Shown: piece by piece, positions 4,508-48,728 of the stretch
How the letters are laid out: each line of letters opens with the position of its first letter
Position numbering within the stretch: position 1 is the stretch's first letter
Assembly: GCA_963755025.1 (NCBI GenBank)
Contig: CAVWIH010000024.1
Location: 15,502 to 79,501, forward strand
Direction of reading: 5' to 3'
DNA length: 64,000 nt
Origin: an uncultured Actinomycetes bacterium
GTDB lineage: Bacteria; Actinomycetota; Thermoleophilia; UBA2241
Translations under genes and position numbers: made by a program
The notes under the pieces: model-generated
Databases searched by the model: none
What the model saw: the letters and a program-made list of their open reading frames with translations, nothing else
Told to the model about the DNA's origin: nothing

Positions 4508-5164
4508 ATGGGAGACAAGCTGACGCTACGGATGCTCTCCTCCGACGAGGTCGGCAAAGTGCGCGAGCAGTGCCTGCACCTGCTGTCCGAGATGGGCATG
4601 AAGATCGACCACGAAGCCGTCCTGCGCATACTCGCCGACGCCGGCGCGCAGGTCGACTTCGAGACCAGGGTCGTGCGCTTCCCGGCCGCCCTGGTCGAGT
4701 CGGCCATAAAGACGGTCCCCGGCGAGCTCACGGTCAAGGGCGCCGAGGAGCGTCACGACTGCAAGATCCCGCACCCCGACGGCCTGTTCTACTCCTGCAC
4801 GAACATCCAGAGCATGCTGCACCACGACCCCGACACCGGGCGCTTCGTCGACAACACGGCCCAGAAGTACGCCGAGTGGTGTCAGGTCGTCGAGCTCCTC
4901 GACCACGCCGACATCTGCGCCATTCAGACGCCCATGGACGTGCCGGCCGAGAGCGCCGAGGTGCACGCCCTCGCCATCCAGATGCAGAACACGACCAAGC
5001 CGCTCTGGATGCACGCCTTCAGCCGCGAGGCCGTACCCTTCATGTTCGAGCTCATGGTCGCCCGCGTGGGCAGCGTCGAGGCCCTGCGCGAGCGCAGCCT
5101 CGTCATCATCAACCCCGGCACCGTCTCGCCGTTCATCATCAAGGAGATGGACGCCGAGGAGATC
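4508..5164 (+). pseudogene. N-terminal ~220 aa of an MttB-family methyltransferase, truncated at a junction
   Basis: AGGAG RBS; LSSDEVGKVREQCLHLLSEMGMKI..GAQVD..VVRFP, QNTTKP, VSP; similarity ends at EEI. Confidence 0.8.
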
Positions 5165-39238: not shown

Positions 39239-40186
39239 CTACTTGCCCTGGTTGACCAGCGCCGAGGTCACCGCCAGCGAAGCCTCGTTGTACTTGTTGA
39301 GGATCTGCCCGTAGGTGCCGTCGGTGATGAGCGCCTGCAGCGCCTTCTGCACGGCGTCGCGGAGCTGGGTGTCGGTCTTGGGGACACCGATGCCGATGAT
39401 GCCGTTCGAGAAGGTGGTGGCGATCGTCGGGTCCTGCAGCAGCACGAACGTGTTGCCGTTGTTGAAGGTCTTCACCGTGTAGGCGGCGACCGACTGGTCG
39501 TCCATCTGGGCCTGCGCCTTGCCCGAGGTCACGGCCAGCAGTGCGTCGCTGTCTTGCGGGAACTGCAGGATGGTGAGCTTGGGCTTGCCGGCAGTGGCGA
39601 AGGTCTTCGCGAGCTTCTGCAACTCGCCGACCTGCGCGGTGCCGCTCTGCACGGCGACGGTCTTGCCGGCCAGGTCCTGGATCGAGGTGATGTTGTCGGG
39701 GTTGCCCTTGGGCAGCAGGATGCCGTAGCTGTCGGTGGCGTAGTCGACGAAGTCGAGCTGCTTCTGGCGCGTGGCGTCGTCGAACATCGAGGCCATCACC
39801 ATGTCTTCTTTGCCGGCCAGCAGCGCCGGAATAATGCTGTCGAACACGGTCTGGTCGAAGCTCGCCTTGACGCCGAGCTTGGCGGCGATCGCCTGCGAGA
39901 GGTCGTAGTCGATGCCGGTGGCCTGCTTGCTGCCGACTGCGGTGTACATCTCCCACGGCGGGTAGGGGATGTTGGTGGCCACGCGGATGGTGCCGGCCGA
40001 CCTGATGGCCGCCGGCAGCATGGCGTTCAGCGTCGCGTCGGCGGTGACGCCGCCGCTGGTGGCGCTCGGGCTCGCGCTCGTGCTTGCGCTCGACGAGCTC
40101 GACGGTGAGCTCGACCCGCAGGCGGCCAGAACGGCTAGCACGACGAGCAGTACCGCCGCCAGAACCGCGGCTTTCGCAACCCTCAT
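39239..40186 (-). CDS. Polar amino acid ABC substrate-binding lipoprotein (SBP family 3)
   Basis: Lipobox LAAC; YPPWE, GIDYDL, FDSIIPAL, DFVDY, AVQSGT. Confidence 0.9.
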   Translation of the reverse strand: MRVAKAAVLAAVLLVVLAVLAACGSSSPSSSSSASTSASPSATSGGVTADATLNAMLPAAIRSAGTIRVATNIPYPPWEMYTAVGSKQATGIDYDLSQAIAAKLGVKASFDQTVFDSIIPALLAGKEDMVMASMFDDATRQKQLDFVDYATDSYGILLPKGNPDNITSIQDLAGKTVAVQSGTAQVGELQKLAKTFATAGKPKLTILQFPQDSDALLAVTSGKAQAQMDDQSVAAYTVKTFNNGNTFVLLQDPTIATTFSNGIIGIGVPKTDTQLRDAVQKALQALITDGTYGQILNKYNEASLAVTSALVNQGK

Positions 40187-41589
40187 ACTTCCCCCTTGTG
40201 TAGTGGTGACGAGACGGGCGTCAGCGCCGTCGTGACTTGCGTCAGGAACTCGCAGACCCGTTCAGTATCCTCCATGCTCCAGATTCGAGCCAGAATATCG
40301 TGCGCCGCGGGGCCGGGGAGCTGGCCGGCGGTGAGCCAGGCGAACTTGGCGCTCATCTCGTCGGCGGTCCACGCCGGCTCCGGGTACAGCACGTTCTCGA
40401 CGACCCCGCTCGACACCGTGCGGCCGTCGCGCAGCCTGAGCGTGACCACGGCCGCGTCCTTGCCGCGCGGGTCGTTGGCTTCGGAGAGGTAGTAGAGGCG
40501 GGCGAGCTCGTCGGAGACGCGCACCTCGACGCGCTCGCACAGGGCGCGCACCTTGGCGCTCGCCAGGCGCGGCTCGAGGACCTGCCGGGGGCCGACCTCG
40601 CCGTCGACCAGAAAGACGGCGAGCGGCCAGGCCATGTTGAACTGCGCCTCTTCGGTGGTCGTGGGCAGGCGGGTGCCGAGGCGTACGGCGTCGGGGTAGG
40701 TCTCGACCAGGATGTGCTCGACCGACGCCGGGCCGATGCCCTCGCAGGCGATGAGCCCCTCGAGGGCCAGCAGGGCCGGGTGCGTCCAGGCGCACGAGCA
40801 GAAGCGCTTCCAGGTGATGCCGACCGGCAGCAGGTACGACTCTCCCAGGTCGGCGACGAAGTCGTGAAAGGCGTCGAGCTCGAGGCTCGAGGCGACGCCG
40901 GTAAAGCCGCGGGCCGCGAGGTCGGCGGCCATGAGCCCGGTGAGCGCGCCCACGCCGACGCCGTGCTTGACCATGGCCGGGCGGGCCACGTCGCGCATGA
41001 TGGGCAGGTCGGGGGAGTGGTACTCGGCGATGCCCAGGGCGTTGCTCGTCTGCGCGGCGGAGAGGCGCGCCACATTGGCCGCGATGGCAGCGCAGGCCGG
41101 CGCGCCCCACGCGCCGCAGCCGCGAAAGGCGCGCTCGGCCGAGGCCACGGCGGTGAGCTCGTAGTTGAGGCAGCGGCCGGCGCGAAAGGCAATCTCGTAG
41201 CCGACCACGATGGCGGTGAGCAGGTCTTTGCCGCTGTGGGCGCCGCGGTCGGTGAGGGCCAGCGCGGCCGGCACCACCTGGGCGCCGGGGTGGCCCCAGG
41301 TGTAGATGCCGCAGTCATCGACGTCGAGGGCGTTGGCGGCCACGGCGTTGGCAAAGGCCGCGCCCGGCGCCGACGCTCGCGCGCCGTCGTAGACAAGGCG
41401 CGCCTCGGGCGCCGGCCACCAGGCGCCGGCGAGCTCGGCGGCGATGCGTGTCGAGGCCGTCTGGCGGCCGGCGATCATGGCCGCCAGGGTGTCGGCCAGG
41501 CACATCTTGGCGCGCAGCACGACGTCGGCCGGCAGGTCGTCGAACGTGAGACGTGCGGCGAACTCGACGGCCCTCGTCACGGCCGTCAC
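40183..41589 (-). CDS. MmgE/PrpD family protein
   Basis: AAFANAVAANALDVDD, GHPG, AIVVGYE, KRFCSCAWTH, AQFN; GTGA overlap with MttB. Confidence 0.88.
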   Translation of the reverse strand: MTAVTRAVEFAARLTFDDLPADVVLRAKMCLADTLAAMIAGRQTASTRIAAELAGAWWPAPEARLVYDGARASAPGAAFANAVAANALDVDDCGIYTWGHPGAQVVPAALALTDRGAHSGKDLLTAIVVGYEIAFRAGRCLNYELTAVASAERAFRGCGAWGAPACAAIAANVARLSAAQTSNALGIAEYHSPDLPIMRDVARPAMVKHGVGVGALTGLMAADLAARGFTGVASSLELDAFHDFVADLGESYLLPVGITWKRFCSCAWTHPALLALEGLIACEGIGPASVEHILVETYPDAVRLGTRLPTTTEEAQFNMAWPLAVFLVDGEVGPRQVLEPRLASAKVRALCERVEVRVSDELARLYYLSEANDPRGKDAAVVTLRLRDGRTVSSGVVENVLYPEPAWTADEMSAKFAWLTAGQLPGPAAHDILARIWSMEDTERVCEFLTQVTTALTPVSSPLHKGEV

Positions 41590-42992
41590 CGTCCGCGTAG
41601 CCGGAGCCTGTCGGCGAGCAGGGCCGCGAGCCGCGCCGCGGCAGCTTCGTCGACCAGCACGGGGCGCGGCCGGGCGAGCAGCTCTTTGGCGGCGGCGCTG
41701 GTGCGCTCGCGCAGCGTCTGCGACCCCTCGGAGCGCCAGCGGTCGTGCATGGTGTGGCTGAAGAGGCTCGTCTCCCAGAAATCGCGGTAGTGGCTGCGCG
41801 TGTAGCGCGTCGCCAGGTGATTGCCGCCGGGACCGGCCGCCTTGATCTCGTCGAGGGCCAGCGCCTCGTCGTCGAACGAGGTCTCGCGCAGAAAGGCGCG
41901 GGCGTAGCCCACCAGCTCGTTGCCCAGCAGGATCGACTCGTACGAGCTCTGCAGGCCCGACTCGAGGTAGCCCACGTCGTGCAGCAGCGTGGCTTTGGAG
42001 AGCGCCCCCAGCAGCGCGGTGAGGGCGGCTTCGGCCGACCACTGTTCGTCGAGCGTCTTCGAGTCGGACACGGCGGCATACGAGAAACTGGGCAGGCCGT
42101 AGTGCCGGGCCATGTCGACGCCCGCCTGGTGGCCCAGGAAACTTTCGGGCACGACGTAGGGGTCGATGCCGGTGCGCATGTCCATGACGGCGACGCCGGC
42201 GCCGTAGACGAAGGGCGCGCCGGCCGCGGTGAGCTGGTGCAGCACGAGGCCGCTCAGCACCTCGGCGTTGCCGACCACGAGGCTGGCCGCTACCGAGCGC
42301 GGCGCGGTGGCGCCGGCGTTGGGCGCCGGCGCGTAGACCAGCGGCACGCCGAGCTCGGCGCAGGCGATCACCTTGGTGAGCGCGTCGCCGTCGTGCATGA
42401 GGGGCGGCGAGGGCATGGCGTAGATGATCACGCTGTCGGCGGCGCCACAGGCGGCGGCCATCGCCTTGATGTCGGCGATCACGTCGCCCTGGCGCGGCGC
42501 CACCACGAGGGGCTTGCCGGTGCCGCGCAGCATGGCGGCGACCTGGGCGAGGTCGTCGACGGCCTGGGGGACGTCGGCCGGCAATCCCATCGACATGACG
42601 AAGTCGATATTGGCGAGGCGGTCGCAGAAGGCGGCCATGGTCTCGATGTCGGCGGTCGTCGCGCGGCGCCGCTCGGAGGTCTCGGGGTCGCGCACGTAGA
42701 GGCAGTCGGAGCCCGTGCCGAAGTACGACTCGGCCGCGCTCAGCCGCAGCGCGCGGCCGTCGTGGCGGGCGCGCACCGTGGCCGAGCGCGGCGCCGACTC
42801 GAGCGCGGCGCGCACCAGCTCGCGGCTCAGACGCACCCGGCGGCCGGCGACACTGGCGCCGGCCGCCGCCAGCGTCTCGAGGGCGGGCTCGTAGAACACG
42901 TCGACGCCGACGGTCTCGAGCAGGTCGACGGTCGCGTCGTGGACCCGCCGGCAGTCGCCGTCGTCGAGCAGTGTGAGACTGGCGTGGGCCAT
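41586..42992 (-). CDS. MttB-family methyltransferase, non-pyrrolysine
   Basis: GTGSDC, DFVMSMGLP, LPSFSYAAVSDSK, HDVGYLESGL. Confidence 0.92.
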   Translation of the reverse strand: MAHASLTLLDDGDCRRVHDATVDLLETVGVDVFYEPALETLAAAGASVAGRRVRLSRELVRAALESAPRSATVRARHDGRALRLSAAESYFGTGSDCLYVRDPETSERRRATTADIETMAAFCDRLANIDFVMSMGLPADVPQAVDDLAQVAAMLRGTGKPLVVAPRQGDVIADIKAMAAACGAADSVIIYAMPSPPLMHDGDALTKVIACAELGVPLVYAPAPNAGATAPRSVAASLVVGNAEVLSGLVLHQLTAAGAPFVYGAGVAVMDMRTGIDPYVVPESFLGHQAGVDMARHYGLPSFSYAAVSDSKTLDEQWSAEAALTALLGALSKATLLHDVGYLESGLQSSYESILLGNELVGYARAFLRETSFDDEALALDEIKAAGPGGNHLATRYTRSHYRDFWETSLFSHTMHDRWRSEGSQTLRERTSAAAKELLARPRPVLVDEAAAARLAALLADRLRLRGR

Positions 42993-43043
42993 GCGGGGTT
43001 CCCCGATCGTCTGCGCGGCGGGCGTTCAACCGCGGCGCCGTGG

Positions 43044-43140
43044 GTCACTTGCTTTGTGCTACCGTAAACTGGTCGGCCAGACAACAGGCATTGGCTTAAG
43101 CGGAACGAGGCGGCGGACCCTGCGCGTACAAGCAAGTGAC
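43044..43140. promoter_or_regulatory. Divergent promoter region with a palindrome and a flanking 11-bp inverted repeat
   Basis: GTCACTTGCTT (43044-54) / AAGCAAGTGAC (43130-40); CTGGTCGGCCAG (43069-80). Confidence 0.5.
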
Positions 43141-43167
43141 TCGGGGCGCTCGCGCGAGGAGGCGCGG

Positions 43168-44229
43168 GTGCAGGAGGAGGCGCCGCATGCAGGCGCGACG
43201 GCTCACCTTCGCGACGAGGCGGCCGCGCTCGACGTGCTGTGGCGCGTGTACTGCGCGCCCGACGGGCGCACGGCGGTCTGCCCGGGCTGCGCCGAGGCGC
43301 GGCGCTTTCATCGCGTCTCGCGGCGCCGCGCCTACGCCTGCGACCGCTGCGGCGCGCACATCTACCCGGCCGCGGCCACGCCCTTCCGCCGCTCGGCGCT
43401 GCCCCTTTCGGACTGGCTCACCGCCACGGCGATCGTCGTCGAGTCGGGCGGCAAGGTGACCCCCGCGCGCCTGGCGCGTGCGCTCGGCGTGGAGTACCGC
43501 ACGGGCTGGCGCATGAGGGAACGCCTCACGGGCGCGTTGCGCTCAGACGGCGATGCAGTGGAGCGGCTCGAGGCCTGCGCTCGCGCCTGGCGTAACGCCG
43601 GGGGGTCGCCCGACGAGCCGCTCGTCGACGCCCAGCGGCCCGAGGAGCGCATTCGCGCCGCCGCCTGCCGCGTGCTGGCCGAGCGCGGGTTGAGCTCTAC
43701 CCGTGTGGCCGACATCGCCCGCGAGGCCGGCGTGTCGAGCGCCGCCATCCACTATTACTTCAAGAGCAAAGACGAGGTCCTGCTCTCGGCGCTGCTCTGG
43801 ACCGGCGAGCAGTTGCACGCGGGCTTGCGGCGGCTGACCGAAGAGCCGGCCGACGCACTGACCCGGATGCGCCGCCTGCTCGACATGAGCGTGCCCAGCG
43901 ACCAGCGCCTGCACGACGAGTACCTGCTCTGGCTCGAGGTCTGGGTACGCGTGCGCAGCCACCCCGACTTTCTCGACGAGTGCATGCGCATGTCGCGCCA
44001 GTGGCACGAGGCCGTGACGACCGTCATCGCCCGGGGCGTCGCCGAAGGCGCCTTTCGCCCGATCGTGCCGCTGGCGGAGCTCTGCGACCGCTACGTCGCC
44101 ATGGCGGAGAGCCTCGCCTATCGCGCGGCTCTCGGGTACGAGGGGTTCACCCCCGAACGGTCCCGGCAGATCCTGGCCCGCTTCACGGCCGAGCAGCTGC
44201 AGGTCGCGCCGGGGGCGCTCGACGCGTAG
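43168..44229 (+). CDS. Fusion regulator: IS1595-like Zn-ribbon/HTH plus BetI-type TetR
   Basis: GAGGAGG RBS + GTG; CPGC..CDRC, TPFRRSALPLSDW, LARALGVEYRTGWRM; then RVADIAREAGVSSAAIHYYFKSKDE and LWLEVW. Confidence 0.8.
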   Translation: MQEEAPHAGATAHLRDEAAALDVLWRVYCAPDGRTAVCPGCAEARRFHRVSRRRAYACDRCGAHIYPAAATPFRRSALPLSDWLTATAIVVESGGKVTPARLARALGVEYRTGWRMRERLTGALRSDGDAVERLEACARAWRNAGGSPDEPLVDAQRPEERIRAAACRVLAERGLSSTRVADIAREAGVSSAAIHYYFKSKDEVLLSALLWTGEQLHAGLRRLTEEPADALTRMRRLLDMSVPSDQRLHDEYLLWLEVWVRVRSHPDFLDECMRMSRQWHEAVTTVIARGVAEGAFRPIVPLAELCDRYVAMAESLAYRAALGYEGFTPERSRQILARFTAEQLQVAPGALDA

Positions 44230-44320
44230 AGCGTGAGGCGGGGCTCCGCGCGGAGCAATACGCGGCGCGACGGTCGGCACGCCGCGCCGGCGCCGCGCCG
44301 GCGGTTCGCGACGAAGGCGC

Positions 44321-44920
44321 TCAGCGCGCCGCGGCCGACCCTTGCGCCGGGCGCGCGTCGAGCGGATCGAGCGCGACCCGGCCGTCGTCGGCGACGTGCG
44401 GCGTCCAGGCCGTCCCGTCCCAGTAGCGGTGCGTGTGGCGGCCGGTCGGGTCGGGGTGCCAGGCGGCGGGAACGGCCTGATACTGCGGGCGGGGCGTCTG
44501 CTGCCGGCCTGCCGGCTCGGGCCGCGGCGGCCGGTAGGCGGCGAACCAGGCGGTCGCCGGCCGTCCGAACAGCAAGACGATGGCGACCGCGCGCATCGCC
44601 GTGTCGCAGGCAAACCAGGCCAGCGACACGGTGGTGTGGTGCACGGTGAGCAGGGCCGGCAGGCTGATCAGCGCGCCGAGCACGAACAGGACCGTGTACA
44701 CGATCAGCGCCCAGCGCCTGCCGAACGCCATGGCGGTCACCAGGCCGATGGCCACCGCGAAGCCGATGATGGCGGCGCCGCGCAGGGGCCAGACCAGGGA
44801 GGCGGCGGGGTTCGACAGCGAGGCCAGCCTCACGGAGACGTCCACGATGAGCGCCCAGCCGATCAGGCAGACGGCTACCGTGACCGCCGTCGGCCTCGCC
44901 GGGCGTACTGTGGCGACCAA
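44321..44920 (-). CDS. Membrane protein with DUF2510 domain
   Basis: Several TM helices; PAAWHPDPTGRHTHRYWDGTAWT. Confidence 0.75.
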   Translation of the reverse strand: MVATVRPARPTAVTVAVCLIGWALIVDVSVRLASLSNPAASLVWPLRGAAIIGFAVAIGLVTAMAFGRRWALIVYTVLFVLGALISLPALLTVHHTTVSLAWFACDTAMRAVAIVLLFGRPATAWFAAYRPPRPEPAGRQQTPRPQYQAVPAAWHPDPTGRHTHRYWDGTAWTPHVADDGRVALDPLDARPAQGSAAAR

Positions 44921-45264
44921 GAGATCCCCCTTAGGCGGGCGGGTCGCGACGCGCGCCCGCGTCGGGCGCGCTCGAGACCCGCGTTCGCAGACCATCGCTC
45001 TCTCTTCAAGGTCGACACGCCGCGCCCGGCGCTTGAATTGCAGGCGCGCGCGGCGCGCGAACAGGCGCGGCCGCGCGAGAGGCGCGCGCCGCGCGAGAAA
45101 GCCCGGCCCGCGGCGGGCCGACGCAAGAAGGGCGCCGGGGCGGTGCGCGCCGCGGCGCCCTTCGGGGCGTCGACCCATGCTCTTACGCGGAGCTCACGGG
45201 AGAGTCCTCGGGCGGACCCGCGGTGAGCTCGGGCGCGGCGCCCGCGGGCGCCGCCGCTCAGGCG

Positions 45265-47375: not shown

Positions 47376-48728
47376 CAGGCTACTGAAGATCGCCTCGCCT
47401 CAAGCTCTCCGAGAGCCTTCCGGAGGATGACCCTCGCCGCCTCGCGAACCTGCTAGTGTGCGGCCAGGCAGGCGACGGGGAGGGGCTCAGGATGCGCGGT
47501 GACGAGGAGCGGCAGGCGGGGTTCATCGTCATGACCACGCTCGAGGACGTGGTGCCCGACGATCATCCCCTGCGCGCCATCCGCGCCCTGGTCGACGTCG
47601 CCCTTGGGCAGATGAGTCCCGAGCTCGAGACTCTCTACGCCGAGCGCGGTCGCCCCTCGATCGCCCCCGAGTACCTGCTGCGCGCCCAGCTTGCCCAGAT
47701 CCTCTACGCCATCCCCTCCGAGCGCCGCCTGGTCGAACAGCTGCGCTATAACCTCCTGCTGCGCTGGTTCGTGGGCCTGCCCTTCGACGAGCCGGTCTGG
47801 CATCCGACGACCTTCACCAAGAACCGCGACCGCCTGCTCACGAGGGAGGTCGCCGAGGCCTTCTTCTCTGCCGTGCGCTGCCAGGCCGCCTCGCGCAAGC
47901 TGCTCTCCCGCGAGCACTTCTCCGTGGACGGCACGCTCCTTGAGGCGGCCGCCTCCTTGAAGAGCCTGCGGCCCCGCGAGGAGGGTGAAGATGGGGAGCC
48001 GCCGGCCGGCGGCGGCGGGCGCAACCGCAGCGTCGACTTCCACGGCGAGAAGCGCGGCAACGAGACGCACCGCTCGACGACCGACCCCGACTCACGCCTG
48101 GCCAAGAAGGGACGCGGCAAGGAGGCGCGTCTCTGCTACGCCGGCCACAGCCTCACCGAGAACCGCCACGGCCTGATCGTCGACTGCGAGCTGACTGCGG
48201 CCACCGGCAGCTGCGAGCGTGAGGCCGGCCTGCGGCTGCTCGCCCGTCAGCGGCGCCGCTCCGGCCGCGCTCGCCTGAGCGTAGGCGCCGACCGCGGCTA
48301 CGACACGGCCGGCTTCGTCGCCCGGGCTCGCGAGCTGCACATCACCCCGCACGTGGCCGCCAAGGACCGCTTCAGCGCCGTCGACGGCCGCACCACCCGC
48401 CACGCCGGCTACGCCACAAGCCAGCGTCGACGCAAGCTCGTCGAGGAGCCCTTCGGCTGGATGAAGACGGTCGGCGGCCTGCGCAAGCTGCGCCACCGCG
48501 GCGCGGCCAGGGTCTCGGCCATCTTCACCTTCGCCTGCGCGGCCTACAACCTGGTGCGCTTGCGGCGGTTGCTGGCGGAGCCGGCTCTGAGGTAGGGCCA
48601 GAGGCCCGGAAGGGCTCCCAAAGGGGCTGCCTTGCGGGGCTCGACAGCTCCAGAAACCACCTCATCCGTCTCGCCACGGCTCCTGGCTGCACGACACTCT
48701 CCGGAGGGCGCGCTTGTTCAGCAGCCTG
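47376..48728 (+). mobile_element. IS5-family element, copy 1 (1353 bp), CTAG on both sides
   Basis: IRs CAGGCTACTGAA / TTCAGCAGCCTG; CTAG at 47372 and 48729. Confidence 0.92.
47492..48595 (+). CDS. IS5-family DDE transposase
   Basis: DHPLRAIR, GRPSIAPE, SERRL, FSVDGT, GADRGYD, RKLVEEPFGW. Confidence 0.93.
   Translation: MRGDEERQAGFIVMTTLEDVVPDDHPLRAIRALVDVALGQMSPELETLYAERGRPSIAPEYLLRAQLAQILYAIPSERRLVEQLRYNLLLRWFVGLPFDEPVWHPTTFTKNRDRLLTREVAEAFFSAVRCQAASRKLLSREHFSVDGTLLEAAASLKSLRPREEGEDGEPPAGGGGRNRSVDFHGEKRGNETHRSTTDPDSRLAKKGRGKEARLCYAGHSLTENRHGLIVDCELTAATGSCEREAGLRLLARQRRRSGRARLSVGADRGYDTAGFVARARELHITPHVAAKDRFSAVDGRTTRHAGYATSQRRRKLVEEPFGWMKTVGGLRKLRHRGAARVSAIFTFACAAYNLVRLRRLLAEPALR

Follow-up and report, generated by a model that had tools for sequence, protein, structure and literature searches.

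A TetR-type regulator with an IS1595-transposase-type zinc-ribbon and helix-turn-helix module: a conserved, apparently undescribed family in Actinomycetota

A 64,000-nucleotide stretch of DNA from an uncultured actinobacterium of the class Thermoleophilia (GenBank assembly GCA_963755025.1, contig CAVWIH010000024.1, positions 15,502 to 79,501), here called the window, contains a gene at positions 43168 to 44229 whose product begins like an IS1595-family transposase and ends as a TetR-family repressor. Is this gene a chance joining of two reading frames, or has a transposase domain become a fixed part of a host regulator? An earlier interpretation, made from the letters alone (the sequence-only reading), favored the latter and proposed a regulator with two DNA-binding domains that controls a divergent methyltransferase operon and senses a methylated amine, an architecture of which it knew no description. 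We find its core interpretation supported, while its claims on the ligand, on dual DNA binding and on uniqueness go past the evidence. The gene probably encodes a TetR one-component regulator with an IS1595-type head that belongs to a conserved family and reads DNA through both of its helix-turn-helix (HTH) domains. For the architecture, homology and conservation taken on their own our confidence is high; toward the dual-DNA-binding repressor mechanism, which is predicted from sequence, we lean only slightly.

An IS1595-type module in frame with a complete TetR protein

The gene is a stop-free frame of 353 codons, and its translation is one continuous fusion. Residues 16 to 129 align without gaps to a bona fide IS1595 transposase from the same class (locus L104, with a PF12762 score of 135.7 bits), with 48 of 114 residues identical (42%; BLASTP E value, 5e-29). 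The alignment ends where the DDE domain of L104 begins (L104 residue 128), and at that point the window protein continues into TetR. Both the Zn-ribbon-plus-HTH pattern and the in-frame switch at the place of the DDE core had been claimed from the sequence, and both hold. Profile matches are fainter. The check that had been suggested, a HMMER comparison with Zn_ribbon_IS1595 (PF12760), does give a match (residues 17 to 63; E value, 6.4e-5), but its 23.3 bits fall slightly below the curated Pfam cut-off of 25.4. Residues 76 to 127 match positions 2 to 54 of the 215-position NCBIfam profile for IS1595 family transposases (NF033547; E value, 5.4e-5), far under its 75-bit cut-off. We nevertheless accept the homology because of the pairwise match to L104 and because PF12760 is matched at an E value of ≤1e-3 by 122 of the 150 proteins scanned, i.e., the window protein and its 149 nearest representatives.

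A Pfam scan found no DDE domain in the window protein, and DDE_Tnp_IS1595 (PF12762) has no match anywhere in the assembly, a 3.37-Mb draft of 39 contigs that is 84% complete with 5% contamination; the remark that no DDE remnant lies nearby was thus borne out. The N-terminal domain (N-domain) matches once in this genome. The only inverted repeat found flanks the promoter region, not the gene, unlike the terminal repeats of an IS1595 transposon. Present as a single copy in a genome with no IS1595 DDE domain, the gene is non-mobile. Homology of the N-domain to the transposase part presumed to bind insertion sequence ends would also suit a protein that still recognizes IS1595 ends and represses or targets a mobile element, as truncated transposase inhibitors do. 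We regard such a role in transposition control as very improbable, since no IS1595 DDE domain was found in the genome, the gene keeps a fixed chromosomal place beside metabolic genes in three actinobacterial lineages, and, in a sample of genomes from the class, the fused form and bona fide IS1595 transposases come from different genome families.

The C-terminal half is a complete TetR protein, as had been read: TetR_N and TetR_C_6 both score well above their cut-offs (58 and 54.7 bits; Table 1), and AlphaFold2 (AF2) predicts nine helices over residues 158 to 344 with high confidence. The further label "BetI-like" is right as far as membership in the TetR_C_6 domain family goes, but not in the sense of the BetI equivalog. 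Orthology to BetI is not supported, with 63.2 bits against a TIGR03384 equivalog cut-off of 201.3 and 54.9 bits against 118 for NF001978.

The full-chain AF2 model, built with 34 fused homologues, has a mean predicted local distance difference test score (pLDDT) of 89.7 and a predicted template modeling score (pTM) of 0.58, with disorder confined to residues 1 to 11 and 147 to 155. The N-domain modeled alone from 53 sequences gives a pLDDT of 88.8 and a pTM of 0.80, and a lower pTM for the full chain is in keeping with two domains that are flexibly tethered. In the predicted N-domain, a long helix (residues 8 to 28) precedes a three-stranded ribbon carrying C38, C41, C58 and C61, followed by three helices in residues 80 to 125 (the HTH) and a final helix at 128 to 143; the three strands of the ribbon lie within residues 35 to 58 at a pLDDT of >90.

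The GTG at 43168 is taken as the start codon because it aligns with the ATG of the closest orthologous locus and because a database protein with 98% identity (P0002) begins at the same residue. The ribosome-binding site had been called good and the codons host-like, and we agree on both counts. A GAGGAGG stands 5 nucleotides (nt) ahead of the GTG. GC content at third codon positions is 0.90 in the N-domain and 0.93 in the TetR half, compared with 0.93 to 0.97 in neighboring genes, and relative synonymous codon usage correlates with that of the neighbors at 0.82 and 0.92, respectively. Codon usage of the fused gene is host-like.

Distribution, selection and origin of the fused family

A phmmer search with residues 1 to 150 returned 2,637 proteins at an E value of ≤1e-3, 438 of them at ≤1e-10, and the window protein together with the 149 best matches, as 50%-identity cluster representatives, was scanned for domains. 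PF12760 was found in 122 of these 150 proteins, TetR_N in 22, TetR_C_6 in 20 and DDE_Tnp_IS1595 in 16; the fused architecture is thus present in 22 of the 150 nearest clusters. With a local hidden Markov model, at least the beginning of the DDE domain was recognized in 30 of 156 stored proteins, many of which are truncated. At 90% identity, about 100 clusters have the fused architecture.

Full-length fused relatives were found on independent contigs in metagenome-assembled genomes of Thermoleophilia, in at least 10 Nonomuraea species (52 to 57% identity) and in Mycobacterium sp. 21AC1, and among named records the TetR-fused form is restricted to Actinomycetota. The N-domain was matched at an E value of ≤1e-10 in 38 of 251 genomes sampled from the class; among the typed loci of that sample, the window's own genome family has the N-domain joined to TetR (20 loci), and seven loci from other families, L104 among them, have it joined to DDE. 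When only the TetR half was used as the query, 125 clusters were returned, almost all of them proteins of 305 to 483 amino acids down to about 40% identity, while unfused proteins of about 200 amino acids appear mostly at ≤35% identity. The two halves have therefore long been inherited together. A further search, for unfused proteins of ≤193 amino acids related to the TetR half, turned up only fragments on short contigs.

The ratio of nonsynonymous to synonymous substitution rates (dN/dS; Nei-Gojobori method, NG86), which had been proposed as a check on the N-domain, points to purifying selection there: over 10 pairs it is 0.10 to 0.38 in the N-domain, similar to the TetR half (0.07 to 0.26), with 0.16 to 2.2 in the linker. 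Of the 14 columns that are invariant among 34 fused proteins, the N-domain accounts for 11, and its four cysteines are all among these. Rather than existing only here and free of purifying selection, the fusion recurs on independent contigs in several lineages with low dN/dS. It is old, widespread and under purifying selection, and it is not an accident. For a recent accident, for misassembly, or for an IS1595 copy in decay that happens to run into a TetR gene, one could cite the subthreshold PF12760 score and a draft assembly with many contigs and some contamination; that explanation is already refuted, and its probability is next to nil, by the same fusion on many independent contigs and in genomes of cultured strains, by purifying selection, conserved synteny and host-like codons, and by the lack of stops and frameshifts.

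A few loci depart from the intact form. In Nonomuraea sp. B1E8 (L020, around 4960 to 5000), the N-domain frame is open, yet no in-frame ATG, GTG or TTG was seen from the upstream stop to the conserved domain, and the NCBI gene call is just 256 amino acids (P0208); the locus could have an unusual start codon or a decaying N terminus. Open frames of 96 to 140 amino acids with a partial N-domain at L010 (genome G022), L114 (G069) and L115 (G119), two of them with a TetR piece nearby, may be decayed copies.

A quick, unrooted maximum-likelihood tree was built from 162 N-domains, namely 155 stored proteins (the near-identical P0002 was left out) and 7 loci. It is divided by a branch with 95% support in the Shimodaira-Hasegawa-like approximate likelihood ratio test: to one side are the 34 TetR-fused rows without exception, in the company of 13 short or unclassified proteins but of no DDE protein, and to the other are all 30 DDE rows and the fusions to STAND, NHL and WYL. 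The split is what one would expect if the fusion arose once and then diversified. Descent of the TetR-fused N-domain from an IS1595 transposase is the parsimonious reading of these sequences rather than a proven one, because the tree lacks a root and takes in just the best 150 of the 2,637 matches. Under it, a TetR regulator in an ancestor within the Actinomycetota would have gained the IS1595 N-terminal Cys4 ribbon and HTH, with TetR taking the place of the DDE core, and the fusion would have been retained and have given rise to a family.

The module was also seen, with no complete DDE domain, on NHL beta-propellers, on STAND/AAA_16 NTPases, on an HTH_11-WYL-WCX regulator and beside a chorismate-binding fragment (P0018, P0067, P0043, P0051, P0064, P0096, P0115 and P0155). 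One might then suppose that the module was never domesticated but is an old, promiscuous Zn-ribbon/HTH unit recruited separately by IS1595 transposases, TetR regulators, STAND NTPases, WYL and NHL proteins. The variety of partners among the 150 nearest relatives (TetR in 22, DDE in 16 to 30, and the STAND/AAA_16, NHL and HTH_11-WYL-WCX forms) suits this idea, as do the lack of a root and the fact that most matches are short proteins without a recognizable partner. However, many of those short proteins hold the first part of a DDE domain and so are truncated transposases, and DDE-linked copies spread over the entire non-TetR side of the tree, with the STAND, NHL and WYL forms nested among them. 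The TetR form in Actinomycetota alone among named records and homology that stops exactly at the transposase DDE boundary also speak against separate recruitment, which we judge unlikely; descent from a transposase remains our preferred reading.

The regulator of Mycobacterium sp. 21AC1 (L024) is nested in the Nonomuraea group of the tree and shares its synteny with a PrpD gene and a solute-binding protein (SBP) gene, which suggests horizontal transfer or a mislabeled record.

The claim that the architecture lacks a known description holds in part: no paper describing PF12760 joined to TetR was found in the literature searched, outside subscription journals and supplementary files, but with about 100 clusters the window protein is not unique, and databases already name such proteins. 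NCBI calls them "TetR family" or "TetR/AcrR family transcriptional regulator," and IMG calls them "AcrR family transcriptional regulator," at times with "/transposase-like protein" added. The window gene is thus a member of a conserved Actinomycetota regulator family that is catalogued but apparently undescribed.

Genomic context, promoter motifs and a proposed mechanism

Divergent to the regulator runs an operon (39239 to 42992, minus strand) whose genes are coupled in translation and encode an MttB-superfamily methyltransferase, an MmgE/PrpD-family protein and an SBP (Table 1). The divergent methyltransferase operon had been named in the sequence-only reading, and such neighbors recur in relatives: 30 of 35 distinct fused loci adjoin an MttB and/or an MmgE/PrpD gene. 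An MttB gene is the neighbor at 18 loci, divergent in all except one, and MmgE/PrpD occurs without MttB at 12, i.e., at L003 from Thermoleophilia, at all ten Nonomuraea loci and at the Mycobacterium locus.

TABLE 1 Features of the fused regulator gene, its promoter region and the divergent operon (window coordinates)
Feature	Position	Strand	Remarks
Fused regulator gene, 353 aa	43168..44229	+	IS1595-type Zn-ribbon/HTH module, flexible linker, TetR_N, TetR_C_6
Shine-Dalgarno-like GAGGAGG	43156..43162	+	5 nt 5' of GTG start; direct reading of the sequence
Zinc ribbon, residues 17-63	43216..43356	+	CxxC-N16-CxxC ligands C38, C41, C58, C61; PF12760, 23.3 bits
Transposase-type HTH, residues 76-127	43393..43548	+	Helices 80-92, 99-106, 110-125; recognition-helix motif ...Y(R/K)T(A/G)WRM...
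Disordered linker, residues 147-155	43606..43632	+	pLDDT <50; dN/dS 0.16-2.2; indel-rich columns; length and sequence vary among homologues
TetR_N HTH (PF00440), residues 162-207	43651..43788	+	58 bits, cut-off 24
TetR_C_6 (BetI-type; PF13977), ligand-binding/dimerization domain, residues 232-344	43861..44199	+	54.7 bits, cut-off 27
Candidate operator, left copy of AAGCAAGTGAC	43044..43054	-	Inside conserved block 43036-43093
Candidate operator, right copy of AAGCAAGTGAC	43130..43140	+	Inverted relative to left copy; 28 nt upstream of start codon; core ACAAGCAAGT kept in orthologue, flanks diverged
Second candidate operator, imperfect palindrome CTGGTCGGCCAG	43069..43080		CTGGCTGGCCAG in orthologue; our own reading, no statistical test
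Divergent MttB-superfamily methyltransferase, 468 aa	41586..42992	-	PF06253, 279 bits; no in-frame stop (non-pyrrolysine type)
MmgE/PrpD-family protein	40183..41589	-	PF03972, PF19305; GTG start overlaps MttB stop (GTGA)
Family-3 SBP	39239..40186	-	PF00497; ATG start overlaps PrpD stop (ATGA)

The SBP gene is followed by genes for a UPF0029/DUF1949 protein, a TPR protein and a hydrolase, but by none for a corrinoid protein or an ABC permease. Downstream of the regulator, a convergent gene (44321 to 45178, minus strand), whose product is a membrane protein ending in a DUF2510 domain, is kept in the orthologous locus. A transposase gene 3.2 kb downstream (47456 to 48595, plus strand) has DUF772 and DDE_Tnp_1 / DDE_Tnp_1_6 domains (IS5/IS1182-like) and is unrelated to IS1595. 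At L093, L097 and L100 the regulator lies between two MttB genes, with a second homologue downstream in addition to the divergent one.

According to the literature, MttB-superfamily members without pyrrolysine are, where studied, cobalamin-dependent demethylases of quaternary amines. The chemistry of the MttB neighbor makes a quaternary amine a plausible predicted effector of the Thermoleophilia regulators; it does not imply one for the Nonomuraea orthologues. Because these orthologues lack MttB, the guess at the ligand is weak.

The 11-mer AAGCAAGTGAC occurs twice in the 3.37-Mb assembly, both times within the 175-nt intergenic region, while its reversed control pattern does not occur. Comparison with the orthologue shows the block at 43036 to 43093 and the core ACAAGCAAGT to be conserved, with the sequence between them drifting. 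The 11-mer ACAAGCAAGTR was also tried as the repeat and was dropped: it matches once, since the left copy has an extra A, and the common core is AAGCAAGTGAC. Of 22 loci, 19 have CAAGT[AG] on the coding strand no more than 320 nt ahead of the N-domain. At L093 to L103 and L023, about 85 to 180 nt upstream of the N-domain, we observed three (sometimes four) direct CAAG-centered sites, TGTCAAGCA, CACAAGT and CCAAGTA, which are spaced 29 to 31 nt apart and overlap the likely promoter. In one related group, picked after the pattern was noticed, 12 of 12 loci have three CAAG-centered sites at a spacing of 29 to 31 nt, about three helical turns; in our own reading, sites two and three of this series fall on the -35 element (TTCACA), the -10 element (TAnnnT) and the likely start site. 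The conserved footprints of the Nonomuraea loci are a CAAGG-N-CCTTG inverted repeat and TAGAAGCAAGTA. A sigma-70 and terminator scan of positions 42900 to 44400 gave no sites, and Rfam gave only a chance-level match over 42800 to 44400 (E value, 0.25); the motif conserved upstream is therefore no known RNA element.

A link between CAAGT and the ends of IS1595 elements was sought with an inverted-repeat search around three same-class transposase genes, and no convincing terminal repeats were found. The three IS1595-type copies of genome G190 have diverged too far for element ends to be drawn from them. They have only one 32-nt segment in common, which stands in inverted orientation with 94% identity at L104 (2470 to 2501) and L116 (1074 to 1104), outside open reading frames; no partner repeat was found for it.

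The following mechanism would join these observations. The TetR half would dimerize and bind a small molecule as other TetR proteins do, and the two flexibly tethered transposase-type heads would recognize further short sequences of the same promoter region, for which the AAGCAAGTGAC / CAAGT(A/G) motifs near the regulator's own start are candidates. The bound protein would repress the divergent MttB-PrpD-SBP operon and its own promoter until the ligand arrives; the ligand might be something that the operon consumes or makes, perhaps a quaternary amine. More tentatively still, and with doubts that outweigh our expectation, the repressor may be four-headed, with the TetR dimer on one operator and two heads on CAAGT-type sites about three helical turns away.

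Several observations weigh against this mechanism and the origin proposed for it, beside the PF12760 score and the unrooted tree mentioned above. Five of the 35 fused loci have neither MttB nor PrpD in their short flanks, their neighbors being Peptidase_C11, CobW, a SAM methyltransferase and Peptidase_S58, and, outside Thermoleophilia, the closest orthologues, those of Nonomuraea and Mycobacterium sp., have MmgE/PrpD and an SBP with no MttB within 5 kb. The loci with CAAGT repeats are relatives and not independent samples, and the repeats may be promoter parts or TetR half-sites instead of sites for the N-domain. The distances of the two 11-mers from the central palindrome are unequal, about 25 and 60 nt, and suggest no simple geometric model. 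Sequence and fold searches of the PDB give no significant structure that shows the IS1595 N-terminal module binding DNA: the best match in a sequence profile search of solved structures has an E value of 0.05, and Foldseek returned nothing at ≤0.001, only weak overlaps with MarR and LysR winged-HTH domains.

The lack of a DNA-binding precedent in the PDB would also be expected if the N-domain no longer bound DNA and its Cys4 site acted as a redox or metal sensor, or in protein contacts or oligomerization, modulating an otherwise ordinary TetR repressor. The four cysteines are indeed the most strictly conserved feature, and in distant paralogues the zinc ligands vary less than the motif of the recognition helix. 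Yet the HTH helices are conserved and predicted at a pLDDT of >90, the nearly invariant R115, and A113 across wider relatives, fall in the presumed recognition helix, dN/dS is low over the whole domain, and the promoter region contains conserved extra motifs. We consider loss of DNA binding quite improbable and retain, with the slight preference stated above, the repressor that reads DNA through both domains.

Comparison with known systems

What is new here is an apparently undescribed family that joins two known kinds of protein, a TetR regulator and an exapted transposase domain. A whole bacterial family, with selection and a fixed genomic context, exemplifies the route from transposase domain to regulator, and it offers an entry point both to what the IS1595 N-terminal module recognizes and to the control of MttB-superfamily and MmgE/PrpD operons in aerobic Actinomycetota. 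Orthologues in cultured Nonomuraea strains make direct testing possible. Where PF12760 is taken to mark transposases, as in the methods of PMC13639185, pipelines will mislabel the fused regulators as mobile elements. If the four-headed form is true, one ligand-controlled protein could wrap or bridge the whole divergent promoter region, a bacterial transposase end-binding domain would have been rewired to promoter recognition, and the module would have been put to use again, each time on its own, with STAND, WYL and NHL partners.

With the TetR/AcrR repressors of the TetR_C_6 (BetI/RutR-like) subgroup, the window protein shares its C-terminal 200 amino acids, consisting of TetR_N and TetR_C_6 in nine predicted helices. 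TetR genes are typically divergent from the operon that they control, and the window gene is likewise divergent from its presumed target. Unlike these repressors of about 200 amino acids, it has a domain of about 146 amino acids ahead of the TetR HTH, and it is not a BetI equivalog. Its Cys4 ribbon and HTH resemble those of the IS1595-family (ISXO2-like) transposases, at 42% identity over 114 residues, while it differs from them in lacking DDE_Tnp_IS1595, in being single copy and fixed in position, and in having TetR at the place of the DDE core.

The fusions of STAND NTPases, of HTH_11-WYL-WCX regulators and of NHL propellers begin with a homologous PF12760-type module and also lack DDE, but they have other C-terminal partners and are placed among the transposase-linked copies in the tree. 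Well-documented cases of transposase DNA-binding domains turned host transcription factors are mostly eukaryotic, and include the THAP, BED, CENP-B/pogo and paired-domain types. As in these proteins, the DNA-binding end of a transposase would have been kept in the window protein and the catalytic core lost or replaced; in contrast to them, the window protein is bacterial, would come from a different transposase superfamily and has its transposase-type end joined to a ligand-sensing one-component regulator.

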